The position numbers were made by a program, and so were the translations under genes. Positions 46,107 through 58,320 of a DNA stretch of 64,000 bases are shown here, piece by piece. The notes beneath the pieces were generated by a model that was not told the origin of the DNA, did not search any database, and saw only the letters and a list, made by a program, of their open reading frames with translations. Positions within the stretch are counted from its first letter, which is position 1; each line of letters starts with the position of its first letter. Source of the DNA: a phage; the NCBI GenBank assembly GCA_011915565.1, contig GCA_011915565.1_3920.1. One strand, written 5' to 3'.

Positions 46107-46133
46107 AAGGCTGCTTCGGCGGCCTTTTTTATT
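46107..46133 (+). terminator. intrinsic terminator
   Basis: aggctgc-ttcg-gcggcct then tttttta. Confidence 0.6.
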
Positions 46134-46191
46134 TGTATTTTGTGCAGAGTGCTGTATAATTGTTGTCACGATAAACTAAACAGGAGAACCA

Positions 46192-49740: not shown

Positions 49741-50526
49741 ATGGGTATTGTAAAAATAATTAATGGTGATATCTTTGCCGCATTTGATAAAGGTAAGTTT
49801 GACATCATCGGTCACGGTTGCAACTGTATGAACTTAATGGGTGCAGGTATCGCTGACAAGATTTCTAAACTTTACCCAAAAGCGTATGAGACCGATACAG
49901 AAGTTTATCTGTATGCAGGTGGTATAGGTCACAAACCCTGTGAAAATTTACTAGGTAATTTCTCTGTAGCACGTTTAAAACAAGGTCGTATAGCTAATCT
50001 TTACACTCAGCTTAAGACTGGTAAAGATGCCCGATACAGTGCTTTAGAGTCATCTTTGAAACAGCTTAACAGATACTGTGAAGTTAATCAGTTGAAGAAA
50101 GTTGGGTTACCTATGATTGGTGCAGGTATCGGTGGACTTGACCCTCAAGCCGTTACCGTTATCATTAATCAGGTGATGAAGAGTGTAGATGTGTATCTGT
50201 ATGTCTACGAAGGAGAGATGTACCACAAGTTACGCTCAGGTTGGAATAACTACTGCGAACCAGAATACTTTGCAGGTGTAGTAACGTTCACAGACAATGC
50301 AGTTACCCTCTTCAGACGAAGAAAAGGTAAGATACATCAAAGTAACCCTCCGGTTGAAAAGATGTCTCTAAGTAACGCTCTAGTTACCCACCTGTCGAAG
50401 AGCAATCACAGAATTGCAGTAACATTTGGCAGTGATGCAGACACATATATCTATGCAAGGACTGATGAAGATATCGAGGAGATTTTCTCATCACAAGAAG
50501 TTACCTTCTTAGACGCAAAGAACTAA
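49741..50526 (+). CDS. macro-like domain protein (candidate ADP-ribose binding/hydrolase)
   Basis: NGDIF...DIIGHGCNCMNLMGAGIADKI and LPMIGAGIGGLDPQAV resemble macrodomain motifs (GDIT...IVNAAN..L.GGGGV and FPAISTGVYG). Confidence 0.5.
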   Translation: MGIVKIINGDIFAAFDKGKFDIIGHGCNCMNLMGAGIADKISKLYPKAYETDTEVYLYAGGIGHKPCENLLGNFSVARLKQGRIANLYTQLKTGKDARYSALESSLKQLNRYCEVNQLKKVGLPMIGAGIGGLDPQAVTVIINQVMKSVDVYLYVYEGEMYHKLRSGWNNYCEPEYFAGVVTFTDNAVTLFRRRKGKIHQSNPPVEKMSLSNALVTHLSKSNHRIAVTFGSDADTYIYARTDEDIEEIFSSQEVTFLDAKN

Positions 50527-50555
50527 TAAACTCTGTAGAATATTCACAATAGATT

Positions 50556-50603
50556 AAGCCTTCCTTATCTGGTAAATTTTTCAGGTAAGGAAGGCTTTTT
50601 TAT
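50556..50603 (+). terminator. strong intrinsic terminator
   Basis: 11 bp stem aagccttcctta...taaggaaggctt followed by ttttttattt. Confidence 0.75.
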
Positions 50604-50795
50604 TTCAAGATTGTGCAGGTAGAGTTCTGTAGAGAAATCTGTAGAGAAAATTTTGAACTCCAAAGAGAAAATTCATTTTCAAACTGTGCAGGTAATCTCC
50701 AAAGAGCTTTTTCATTTTCAAAACGTGCAGACCCCGCTCAGGTCGGGCAAGAAAAATCATTTTAGAATTGTGCAGGTAGGTGGATGCAGGTGGGG
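50603..50795 (+). repeat. iteron-like direct repeat cluster
   Basis: Four copies of (c)attt(t)ca(a/g)a(a/t)(c/t)gtgcag(gta) at about 50605, 50674, 50713 and 50758, plus tandem ctccaaagag-N6-cattttcaaa and ctgtagagaaa x2. Confidence 0.6.
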
Positions 50796-50954
50796 ATGTC
50801 GCCATTTCTCACAAGGCTAACACATCTGGAAATAAAAGTCAACAGAAAAATTTGTAGCGGATTGAAAAATAATTCTTGATTGTAGTTCTGTTTTGTGGTA
50901 GTCGCGTGCGCCCGTTTCATTACAATTTTTGCAAAAATATTTTTAAAATTCCTA

Positions 50955-51014
50955 TTGACTCTTTGAGTATGGTTATCTAATATTTGCATCAACGGGGAGG
51001 GAATGACCTTCCCC
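50955..51014 (+). promoter_or_regulatory. type A cassette: sigma70-type promoter plus conserved 5' leader stem-loop
   Basis: TTGACT-N17-TAATAT then leader hairpin ggggagggaatgaccttcccc and conserved actaa(a/g)taaagtcct(t)aaact(a)ggagattc(a/t)aaaatg. Same leader recurs at about 53121, 53985, 54917, 56058 and 56384. Confidence 0.6.
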
Positions 51015-51046
51015 ACTAAGTAAAGTCCTAAACTGGAGATTCTAAA

Positions 51047-51427
51047 ATGGCATACCGTGCACCTAAATTCATCAACAAAGACAACTTCCGCAACGCACTG
51101 GAGAAGTCACTTGATGAAAAATTTAACGGCAAATTGATTGTTGTTCACGCATTCAATTTTAAGTATGATATTAACGGGAATAAAATCAACCATTACACGG
51201 CAACCATGTTAGATGGTACGCTATCAAGTGAAAAAGCCGTACTGAATGCACTTGCAGGACGTGGTAAAAACCTGATAAGCTGCAATAAGAGACGTTATCA
51301 AGGTGGCGCATATGGTTATGATGATGCTGTTTACCATCTTGAAAATATGGGCTATTCAGTGGAGAAAGCTGGAGCGTCTCAAATAATTGGTAGTGATGGT
51401 TATGTGACAATCTTCAAAATTAAATAA
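51047..51427 (+). CDS. small early-region protein 1
   Basis: 126 aa ORF behind a type A cassette. Confidence 0.5.
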   Translation: MAYRAPKFINKDNFRNALEKSLDEKFNGKLIVVHAFNFKYDINGNKINHYTATMLDGTLSSEKAVLNALAGRGKNLISCNKRRYQGGAYGYDDAVYHLENMGYSVEKAGASQIIGSDGYVTIFKIK

Positions 51428-51440
51428 AAGTACTTTACAA

Positions 51441-51513
51441 GGGGCTTATAGTTCGATAAAGTAAGCCCCAGATAAAGAGCTTTATCACTCAATCCTAAAT
51501 TGGAGATTCAAAA
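51441..51513 (+). promoter_or_regulatory. type B cassette: intergenic hairpin plus conserved ATAAAGAGCTTTA box and RBS
   Basis: ggggcttatagttcgataaagtaagcccc then cagataaagagctttatcactcaatcctaaattggagattcaaaaatg. Variants at about 51786, 52391 and 53460 keep the stem by compensatory or wobble changes. Confidence 0.55.
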
Positions 51514-51771
51514 ATGGCTATTATCAAAAACGTTGTAGTTCCTGCAAAAACTCGTGATGACGCTCGCATCATGGCGAAAAAGTTAGGCGGGAAAGTGGTT
51601 GACAACGGAAAACAATCTGCTGTAAGATGGAGCGTGAAGGCTGATAAGCAACTAACCTTAAAACGCAGTTCAAACAATCTTTTTAAAGGTGTAAAATCAC
51701 TCGGTAAAGTGAACGTGTTTACCAAAAAAGGCTATAAAATGCACTTATCATTAACTGGCAATTTAATCTGA
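51514..51771 (+). CDS. small early-region protein 2
   Basis: 85 aa basic ORF behind a type B cassette. Confidence 0.5.
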   Translation: MAIIKNVVVPAKTRDDARIMAKKLGGKVVDNGKQSAVRWSVKADKQLTLKRSSNNLFKGVKSLGKVNVFTKKGYKMHLSLTGNLI

Positions 51772-56759: not shown

Positions 56760-58320
56760 AGAGACTCTATACAGTCCCTTTCCTTTCCTTCCTAGAATCT
56801 ATCCCACTAATTCGATAGAGACTATCTCATACCTTAAAAAGCAATAACTCTATAGTCTACTCTATAACCTCTTATCAAATCAACTTAAATATAAGCCCAT
56901 AACCCGAAAGGGAAGGGCAACCACTAAAACGCTCTATAAAGCTCTATAACAGCCTTATCAACCTAACTTAAGCAATCATATTAACCCACTCTAAAAAGCC
57001 CTTTATAGAGCTTCCCAGAGCCTTAAAAGAATCTTATAAGGGTGTAAGCTTTATCATCTCGTTAGTATTCTTGTGAATAACTAAAAAGGGATTGGTAGTT
57101 CCTTTAAAGTATGTTATAGGGGCTATAAAGTTACTCAAAAGTTACGTAAAAGAGGCTATAAAGTTACGTGATAGATAGCTTAAAAGTTACGTAAATGCTA
57201 GCCCCCTTAACATTTTCTTAACAATTTCTTAACAATCCCTACATAGTTATGCTTTTAAGGCACTTGTTAGAGACTTGTTAGCCCTTGTTAAATCTCTGTT
57301 AAGACCACGTAAAAGCCTTGTAAGAGTCTTTGACATAGCCTTAAAAGCCTCTGTAAAGCCCTATAAAGAGCTATCCATACAGTTGAGGGGTAGATACTAG
57401 GAAGAGATTTAAAAGAGCTTATAAAGAGTTATAGAGAGCTTTTAAGAGGTATGTTTAAGAGTTCACTAAGAAAGGAAAGGGAATGATAAGAAAAGAGATA
57501 GTGACCATGCTAATAGCTTGTTAAAAAGATTAAACACTTGTTAGAAACTTGTTAATTATCTTAACAAAATAACTCTTTAAAATTAACTTGTTAACTCTTG
57601 TTAGTCATCTGTTAAGCCTCTGTAAAGTCTATGTATCAACTGTTAAGAAACTGTTACATCCCTGTTAGTTCTGTTAAGAATCTGTTAAGACCTCTGAAGA
57701 GATGTTAAGAGAATGTAGTAGCTGTTAAGAGATTGTTAAGGATATTTTAAAATTTTGCAAAGTACTTGTAAGGGAGCTGTTAAGGGCTACCAAGCAGATA
57801 TACATCCTAATCAGATATTTTTGAGTTCCTTCAAAGACCCTAAAAAATGACTTGATAGTCCTATTTTATAAAAATTTTAAAAATCTGAATAATTACCTAG
57901 ACAGTCTTTTAAAAATACAGGTAGAAACAGGCTTATAAGATACCTTGTTAGTACCGTGTTAGACCTTGTGAGATAAGGTCTGTAAAGATATTCCTGTTAA
58001 GTTTGTTAAAACAGTCTATATAGAGGCTTAGTAGTGCCTAGTGAACACCTATAGAGGGTAACATAGCTGACATAGAGATTAAGGGGTGTATAGAGGCTTC
58101 TAAGAGCGTATAGAGAGATGGTTAAGGTGATTGTATAGGTTGTTAAGAAGGCTTGTTAGAAGAGTGTTTAGAGGGCTTATTAAAGGGCTAGTTAGAAGGG
58201 TTATACAGAGGGCTATTAAGACCACTAGATAGTTACTAAGATACTATATAGTACTATATAACTATATAGAGAGTAAGATTAAGGAGGTTGTTAAGAAGGA
58301 TAGATATTTTGTTCACATAT
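56760..58320. repeat. ORF-free array of short degenerate repeats
   Basis: No ORF of 60 aa or more in any frame across about 1.7 kb; about 30 same-strand copies of (c)tgtta(a/g) concentrated at 57190-58300; recurring ctataaag(ag), tatagag and aaagttacgtaaa motifs. Confidence 0.75.

Follow-up and report, generated by a model that had tools for sequence, protein, structure and literature searches.

Arrays of short, repeated protein-binding sites are known from several phage and plasmid systems. The lambda operators OR1-3 and OL1-3, 17-mers with dyad symmetry, overlap the promoters under their control, bind their protein cooperatively and support long-range looping. Iterons, such as the O sites of the lambda origin and the Rep iterons of F, P1, R6K and pPS10, are asymmetric direct repeats; plasmid Rep proteins additionally recognize a similar site within the promoter of their own gene. 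Middle promoters of T4 carry a MotA box near -30 in place of the -35 element, often just past an early terminator. T5 carries its pre-early genes in a 10-kb terminal repeat. Here, we describe four 27-nt direct repeats in a phage contig (NCBI GenBank assembly GCA_011915565.1, contig GCA_011915565.1_3920.1), of which a stretch of 64,000 nt, hereafter the window, was analyzed. The repeats form an array within a non-coding spacer of 520 bp (50527-51046). The array is an undescribed, lineage-specific example of a familiar kind of element, the protein-binding direct-repeat array, and we put at roughly 85% the probability that it forms a constrained cluster of sites for a sequence-specific DNA-binding protein.

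Like the lambda operators, the array consists of three to four close sites of nearly the same sequence, placed in non-coding DNA that separates transcription units, with strongly conserved site cores and an extra copy at a distant promoter, here 4.4 kb away. Unlike those operators, its units are asymmetric, share one orientation, lie 37-75 bp apart and overlap no recognizable promoter. With iterons, the array has in common asymmetric direct repeats of ~20 bp in one orientation, three to five copies at a unique locus and an AT-rich stretch alongside; it differs from them in its wide and irregular spacing, lacks a prominent unwinding element as well as DnaA and IHF sites, resembles no plasmid sequence and has no initiator gene found near it. 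The extra copy (46125-46160) recalls T4 middle promoters in that a box stands in place of a good -35, ahead of a perfect -10 and directly after a terminator. However, neither the sequence of the box nor its 7-nt gap to the -10, counted from the box end, matches the MotA box, and the box occurs at one promoter and in the array rather than genome-wide. The T5 injection-stop region is likewise non-coding and rich in repeats, and it borders a terminal ~8% with small early genes of the host-takeover type, but here the direct terminal repeat (DTR) is 581 bp long, the island is unique and there is no sequence similarity. The lambda cosB R sites and SPP1 pacL boxes also comprise three to four short repeated boxes at irregular 30-70-bp spacing with A/T tracts; these terminase arrays lie within ~200 bp of the cut site, whereas the array described here is 6.4 kb from the DTR.

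The repeat unit (CTTTTTCATTTTCAAnnTGTGCAGGTA) occurs in four copies, all on the + strand, that start at 50595, 50668, 50707 and 50752 (Table 1). Each unit is asymmetric and holds two constrained boxes, TCATTTT and GTGCAG(GT), with about one helical turn (~12-13 bp) between their centers; several units come with a further short box (CTCCAAAGAG or CTGTAGAGAAA). The T-tail of the upstream terminator doubles as the 5' part of unit 1. The TCTGTAGAGAAA tandem between units 1 and 2 is related to the CTCCAAAGAGAAAA box (the "B" box family) and matches 50655-50673 at 79% (repeat family D3). A sequence-only reading of this DNA had reported most of these elements, and they are present much as it described them: a strong terminator with four repeat copies behind it, a 35-bp duplication (recovered as 34 nt, repeat family D1, 50658-50691 versus 50697-50730 at 82% identity, with a third copy at 50742-50775 at 71%), a short doubled motif that proved to be a perfect 12-bp tandem, and a GC-rich blip that falls past position 50795, where the feature had been said to end, but in the place described for it. 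As that reading also held, the repeats lie upstream of the first early promoter (TTGACT-17-TAATAT, 50955-50983), whose TTGAC does not vary among the 12 relatives aligned, an Erwinia phage included.

Table 1. Features of the array locus and of the solitary copy, in window coordinates (PWM, position weight matrix; pi, nucleotide diversity; RBS, ribosome-binding site)
Feature	Position	Strand	Remarks
Solitary unit TTTTTTATTTGTATTTTGTGCAG	46125-46147	+	Directly after rIIB terminator 46109-46124
Promoter around solitary unit	46155-46160	+	Perfect TATAAT, 7 nt past box; ATG of next gene 46192
Macro-domain/"phosphatase" gene	49741-50526	+	261 aa; upstream neighbor of spacer
Intrinsic terminator (Felix O1 t13)	50556-50603	+	Stem 50556-50597; 17 pairs, 7 G-C; T-tail
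Unit 1 CTTTTTTATTTCAAGATTGTGCAGGTA	50595-50621	+	PWM 34.0 bits
Tandem TCTGTAGAGAAA	50626-50649	+	Two perfect 12-bp copies; TRF score 48
B box CTCCAAAGAG + unit 2 AAAATTCATTTTCAAACTGTGCAGGTA	50658-50667 + 50668-50694	+	PWM 36.2 bits; repeat family D1
B box CTCCAAAGAG + unit 3 CTTTTTCATTTTCAAAACGTGCAGACC	50697-50706 + 50707-50733	+	PWM 32.6 bits; repeat family D1
Unit 4 AAAAATCATTTTAGAATTGTGCAGGTA	50752-50778	+	PWM 34.4 bits
Hypervariable segment	50779-50835	+	pi 0.29; here a G-rich replacement including the partial copy GATGCAGGTGGGG
Partial unit copy GATGCAGGTGGGG	50783-50795	+	
AT-rich conserved block AAAAGTCAACAGAAAAATTTGTAGCGGATTGAAAAATAATTCTTGAT	50834-50880	+	pi 0.043, 90% invariant columns (Felixounavirus)
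GC-rich near-palindrome GTCGCGTGCGCCCG	50901-50914	+	
First early-gene cassette	50932-51046	+	UP-like A/T tract 50932-50948; TTGACT 50955-50960; 17-bp spacer; TAATAT 50978-50983; leader hairpin 50994-51014; RBS CTGGAGA 51033-51039; ATG 51047
Small early genes, series	51047 onward, to 57200	+	Downstream of spacer, filling the space up to the DTR

The array stands far above chance and occupies one place per genome. A 27-nt weight matrix trained on relatives only returned four hits in the window, all within the array (32.6-36.2 bits), against a next-best score of 15.2 bits on either strand and a maximum of 18.8 bits in 50 block shuffles. The exact 10-mer TGTGCAGGTA occurs three times in the 64 kb, every time in the array. 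The complete D4 genome (89,439 bp) gives the same picture, with a unique array and a next-best score of 15 bits. Across 292 phage records the array is a single place per record; the "2 places" seen in Mooglevirus records are off-register matches inside one array. In two-unit pattern scans of viral, metagenomic and bacterial collections, the D4-related loci all had three to five units above 18 bits and unrelated loci had none. Pattern matches in unrelated metagenomic or bacterial contigs were background below 18 bits, including one upstream of the terminase module of a podovirus contig (L051/L102), and no similar arrays were found in plasmids or Escherichia coli genomes.

Across the phage subfamily, the locus is strongly conserved. 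When positions 50000-51600 were compared with phage records by megablast, 228 matched, nearly all from Felixounavirus (Felix O1-like myoviruses), with Escherichia phage vB_EcoM-Ro111lw the nearest at 97.7% identity; by sequence similarity the window is a Felixounavirus. The spacer as query matched 291 phage records and the array 292; Erwinia phages of the Ounavirinae match the repeat block only, and their BLAST matches within the spacer are limited to the unit 4 part, which is almost identical there (GGTCTGGCAAGAAAAATCATTTTCGATTTGTGCATAG). The order of macro gene, spacer and small genes is kept with four units in Felixounavirus, Suspvirus, Mooglevirus and Kolesnikvirus, and in most Felixounavirus sequences GTGCAG falls at +87, +160, +199 and +244 past the macro-gene stop codon. 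Conservation of repeat number, one of the checks that the sequence-only reading had proposed, was borne out: of 44 distinct complete arrays, 34 have four units and nine have three, as counted with the PWM. Unit spacing is fixed by lineage (73/39/45, 75/41/45, 75/45 or 37/37/39 bp). Unit 1 always abuts the terminator in Felixouna-, Susp- and Mooglevirus; in Si3, EcoM2 and contig L072, which carry another terminator hairpin and three units only, unit 1 still sits against the terminator. Erwinia phages have four units at 37/37/39 bp, with GTGCATAG where others have GTGCAGGT. A distant Ounavirinae-like contig (L059/L075), with protein identity of just 30-45% and unalignable DNA, carries four or five units (AAATTCATTTTAAAAACGTGCATAGG) directly after its macro gene.

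The unit cores are also under strong selective constraint. Among 18 distinct Felixounavirus sequences, pi was 0.034 for the unit cores and 0.147 for the 4-fold sites of the macro gene (p = 2.5e-7), whose codon positions 1+2 gave 0.024. The TCATTTT and GTGCAG boxes (0.014) and the CTCCAAAGAG boxes (0.016) were lower still, followed by the inter-unit filler (0.066) and the early promoter (0.13), and the 57 bp right after the array reached 0.29. Unit cores are thus 4-10x less variable than the 4-fold sites of the neighboring gene, which places the array among the most constrained sequences of the region, bordered by a recombination-prone variable segment. After the array, a C tract follows in 21-23 of the 44 arrays and the window-type segment in 14.

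The sites are not coding, not RNA, not promoters and not a genome terminus. Open reading frames (ORFs) across the array vary in start, end and frame by lineage, and inter-unit distances shift by 2 nt between genera. Several GenBank records nevertheless annotate small "hypothetical protein" coding sequences over the array or spacer, namely MH571750 (79772-79927, - strand), PP886228 (81926-82293, three coding sequences) and PQ818761 (34668-34922, - strand); since neither frame nor boundaries are conserved, these are probably spurious. The array matched no Rfam family at gathering score, the RNAalifold covariation term was -0.24 kcal/mol and single-strand folds, whether of RNA or single-stranded DNA, were no better than shuffles (z = +0.24 and +0.21). 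A mini-hairpin, CCCCGCTCAGGTCGGG at 50732-50747, was discarded because relatives carry AGAAAAATCAGGTCGGG instead. No sigma-70 promoter was called within 50598-50800, and no array unit in the window has TAnn[AT]T 6-9 nt past GTGCAG. Hand alignment likewise revealed no element of sigma-70, sigma-54, sigma-E or sigma-32 promoters at a constant distance in the units, and the offset of a GGAACT/GGACTC-like upstream element shifts by 2 nt between genera. Sites for DnaA, IHF, Fis, CRP (half-site only) and Fur-like or Chi-like factors do not fit the array; the Chi-like candidate GCAGGTGG is one mismatch from Chi but leaves TCATTTT and the Erwinia variant unexplained.

Several features might suggest that the spacer is itself the physical terminus or DTR, such as the 520-bp non-coding gap upstream of the early genes, the length of Felixounavirus DTRs (~581 bp) and the ends of the TH10 record and contigs L023, L024 and L031 in or near the spacer. 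Felix O1-like phages have been reported to carry a short terminal repeat. The annotated DTR of Pr103Blw (581 bp, the same at both record ends) and the terminal repeat of D4, a genome sequenced independently with an exact 581-bp copy at each end, map to 57201-57791 of the window, so that the physical genome ends fall there and the array lies 6.4 kb to the left, ~7.0-7.4 kb (~8%) from the right physical end. In the TH10 record, the break reflects an overlap of 73 bp left by the assembly. This mapping in two independent records refutes the terminus reading for this lineage and leaves it a vanishingly small probability.

Because the units occupy one locus at fixed position and copy number, evolve under strong purifying selection and show no ORF, RNA structure or promoter hexamers, we regard them as very probably protein-binding sites and not accidental repeats. 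The suggestion of the sequence-only reading that they are operator or iteron sites thus holds in part, as far as protein binding goes. Evidence that bears on the choice between an origin and a regulator includes the solitary copy, to which weak BLAST and PWM matches pointed at 46125. Its TGTGCAG is kept between the window and Mooglevirus, with different flanking spacer bases, and it scores 26-27 bits in Susp/Moogle-type contigs. With a conserved box replacing the -35, a perfect -10 and a post-terminator position, the site is similar to an activator-dependent or repressor-occupied promoter; its weak -35 is why a simple scan did not call it. Because this copy is embedded in a promoter after the rIIB terminator, we favor a transcription-factor site array over an origin, although a transcriptional and not replicative role is a tentative preference that we would rate somewhat below even odds.

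On this transcriptional reading, the four units would be double-stranded DNA binding sites of one sequence-specific protein, most likely a phage-encoded (possibly a host) transcription factor. With its two boxes about one helical turn apart, each unit could allow the protein to touch two successive major grooves on one DNA face. The factor would occupy the promoter-embedded copy at 46125 and so switch that operon, and the four-site cluster, bound cooperatively and with high affinity, would serve as an operator or boundary complex where the array lies, between the t13-terminated rightward operon and the right-terminal island of small early genes. Protein binding, the identity of the factor and the direction of its effect are what we infer from the pattern of sites. 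The operon after the solitary promoter encodes a weak SLT-like protein, PNK, a spanin and a macro-domain protein. As it encodes neither an initiator nor any other DNA-binding protein, an analogy to plasmid-like autoregulation by a Rep initiator is unsupported. We scanned 31 proteins from around the array and early island, the operon upstream, the operon at the box-bearing promoter and the polymerase operon; the only recognizable DNA-binding or helix-turn-helix protein among them is an HTH_3 protein of 99 aa, present in 259 Escherichia, Salmonella, Shigella and Citrobacter phage records.

Several observations weigh against a transcription factor. The solitary site is weak in the window: its 13.8 bits fall short of the 18.8 reached by shuffled sequence, and neither the Erwinia phage nor contig L075 has it. 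The likeness of the site to unit 1 could come in part from the generic terminator tail TTTTTYATTT that both share. Its -35 matches at 3/6 positions, and the simple promoter scan made no call at 46125-46160. Among the proteins scanned, no cognate binding protein for the array was recognized, and no DNA-binding Pfam domain turned up in 11 island and 10 upstream-operon proteins. Dyad-symmetric sites are the usual targets of HTH_3 dimers, whereas the array units are asymmetric, and the HTH_3 protein was not detected in the array-carrying Erwinia phages. The array units lie 175-360 bp upstream of the -35 of the first early promoter and overlap no early promoter there or further along; the control of the early island that the sequence-only reading proposed stays hypothetical. 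An origin, moreover, may be compatible with all of these results.

In an origin, the units would serve as iterons, and a phage initiator would melt the adjacent AT-rich block or load the T7-like primase-helicase; the strong early promoter and, in many relatives, a G-quadruplex (G4)-forming tract might help opening or priming. Iteron arrays are recognized by at least three same-orientation direct repeats (~17-27 bp) at one locus, and four + strand units are found here. The direct repeats share one orientation, number three to five and form one highly constrained array per genome, adjoined by a conserved AT-rich block and a strong promoter and insulated from read-through by a strong terminator. 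Plasmid Rep systems, too, place an extra site in a promoter, and no replication origin or iterons for Felix O1-like phages were found in the literature searched. Among the evidence, it is the repeat geometry alone that speaks for an origin, and even there the spacing is irregular (73/39/45 or 37/37/39), unlike that of 22-bp-type iterons. The AT content of the array (0.61) equals the genome mean, those 100-150-bp stretches of the spacer with the lowest duplex stability come no higher than the top 5.8-7.7% of the window, and the weakest 60-bp stretch of the spacer is the UP-like tract of the promoter. The spacer holds no matches to the DnaA box TTWTNCACA, to the IHF consensus WATCAANNNNTTR or to that of Fis. 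Cumulative GC and AT skews turn only at gene-strand switches (~7.3, 40, 52 and 86.8 kb in D4), not at the array, and no Rep, O or DnaA-like family appeared among the 31 scanned proteins, most of which are orphans. T7 origins, finally, are defined by promoters and not by iterons. The replisome of Felix O1 is T7-like (PMC3185647). An origin ranks second among the readings, though we consider it unlikely.

The distance of the array from the right end invites a reading in which it marks the inner boundary of the right-terminal ~8%, as a T5-like pause in DNA entry, or serves as an accessory packaging or genome-organization site. It lies 6.4 kb from the DTR, exactly bounding the early island, and its irregular three to four sites with A/T tracts are nearer the geometry of lambda cosB or SPP1 pacL than that of plasmid iterons. 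In contig L075 the array abuts a TTAACA-rich block, a word that also fills the Felixounavirus DTR, and Felix O1 has no identified small terminase subunit. Yet the cleavage sites and DTR are 6.4 kb off in two independently determined genomes, the island genes are transcribed toward the genome end, and two-step injection has no evidence in this phage group and to our knowledge has never been reported for Felix O1-like phages. Contig breaks recur beside the array, but the G4/C-rich tract would explain them at least as well, as would allele bubbles in a mixed sample. We therefore find such an end-linked function improbable, and its more specific form, in which the array and the G4-forming tract that follows in many relatives signal a boundary for staged genome entry, a long shot. 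If staged entry were true, the right-terminal ~8%, which holds small early genes only, would enter and be expressed first while transfer paused at the array, so that a myovirus with a DTR of 581 bp would show first-step transfer of the T5 kind. Slightly less credible than an end-linked function is a phage-specific promoter class in which an activator box replaces the -35 as in T4 middle promoters and some members drive a short or C-rich spacer transcript. The solitary copy has the required layout, lying right behind a terminator with a weak -35 and with 7 nt between the box and a perfect TATAAT, and TRTAGR occurs 9 nt past GTGCAG after units 1 and 4 in many relatives. TRTAGR, however, lacks the essential last T and is 2 nt off the distance at the solitary site; in the window only the 46142 site, and no array unit, has TAnn[AT]T at 6-9 nt. 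No further copy of the box exists in 89 kb, which rules it out as the hallmark of a general class of promoters. A functionless relic, a tandem duplication of the terminator tail kept by descent only, would account for the overlap of unit 1 with the tail, for TTTTTYATTT being a generic terminator tail in this phage and for the copy number of three or four. This explanation is already disfavored and very improbable, given cores 4-10x less variable than 4-fold sites beside a hypervariable flank of 57 bp, and a motif kept where the surrounding DNA is unalignable and where the terminator hairpin has been replaced.

By Felix O1 nomenclature, the spacer separates genes 13 and 14, and its hairpin is known as terminator t13 (PMC3185647, Table 2), for which a dG of -21.8 was given (PMC3185647). 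The terminator closes the rightward operon whose last gene is the macro-domain gene, and its pi within Felixounavirus is 0.022. The array repeats go unmentioned in the genome papers on Felix O1 and wV8; the former paper (PMC3185647) lists only direct repeats of at least 24 bp elsewhere and describes the temporal regulation of these phages as unknown. The PhageMaP knockout screen (Bas63) used a library that targeted genes only, with the spacer outside it. Felix O1-like phages are classic Salmonella typing phages and are common in therapeutic and biocontrol cocktails, and a regulatory switch or an origin, whichever is true, would fill a gap. The array offers a concrete handle, as DNA bait for a binding protein and as a defined deletion target. 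For phage engineering, the locus adjoins a dispensable early island, itself a likely place for cargo insertion.

Downstream of the array, the 47-bp block at 50834-50880 holds an inverted repeat, GTCAAGA...TCTTGAC, in most relatives (alignment columns 338-400). The GC-rich palindrome (alignment columns ~420-435) varies by genus yet stays palindromic, with GCGTacACGC in SUSP1 and CGCAtacgTGCG in Mooglevirus. Because palindromy is kept while the sequence differs, this suggests a second, dyad-symmetric protein site or a hairpin, ~45 bp upstream of the early promoter -35. After about half of the arrays (e.g., L040 at ~1887 and L036 at ~3570) comes a C-rich tract, CCCCTCTCCCCCTCTTACTCCCCCTCTCCCC, whose complement is a canonical G-quadruplex motif and the sole such motif in those loci; D4 and the window have none. 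Contigs L023, L024 and L031 and the TH10 record break at or near this tract. Two contigs are chimeric or contaminated: within the array, past GGTCGGG, L026 (IMGVR_UViG_3300045988_004180) turns into foreign DNA rich in GC, and L024 (…009833) ends in Illumina Nextera adapter sequence. In L075 (9707-9860, IMGVR_UViG_3300045988_063805), the array leads directly into a 150-bp block with about nine TTAACA words and then into early promoters, and a gene for a D12-class adenine methyltransferase lies just upstream of the macro gene.

The DTR itself (57201-57791) is full of TTAACA, with forward copies at the left edge and many TGTTAA/CTGTTAAGA on the right; its AT content is 0.67, and it holds some of the least stable DNA of the window. 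GATC has zero occurrences on both strands of the whole window (1-64000), a complete avoidance of this Dam/MboI-type site, and Chi (GCTGGTGG) is likewise absent from the whole 64 kb. Lineages differ in which gene comes first after the spacer. Near 50932-51046, 53105, 53969, 54900, 56052 and 56366, a near-identical cassette precedes each small early gene, composed of an A/T tract, TTGAC(T/A)-17-TA(G/A)TAT, TTGCATCA, a GC hairpin and the RBS CCTAAACTGGAGA. They are similar to the promoter-early-stem-loop cassettes of T4-type phages, for which a role in gene shuffling has been proposed.

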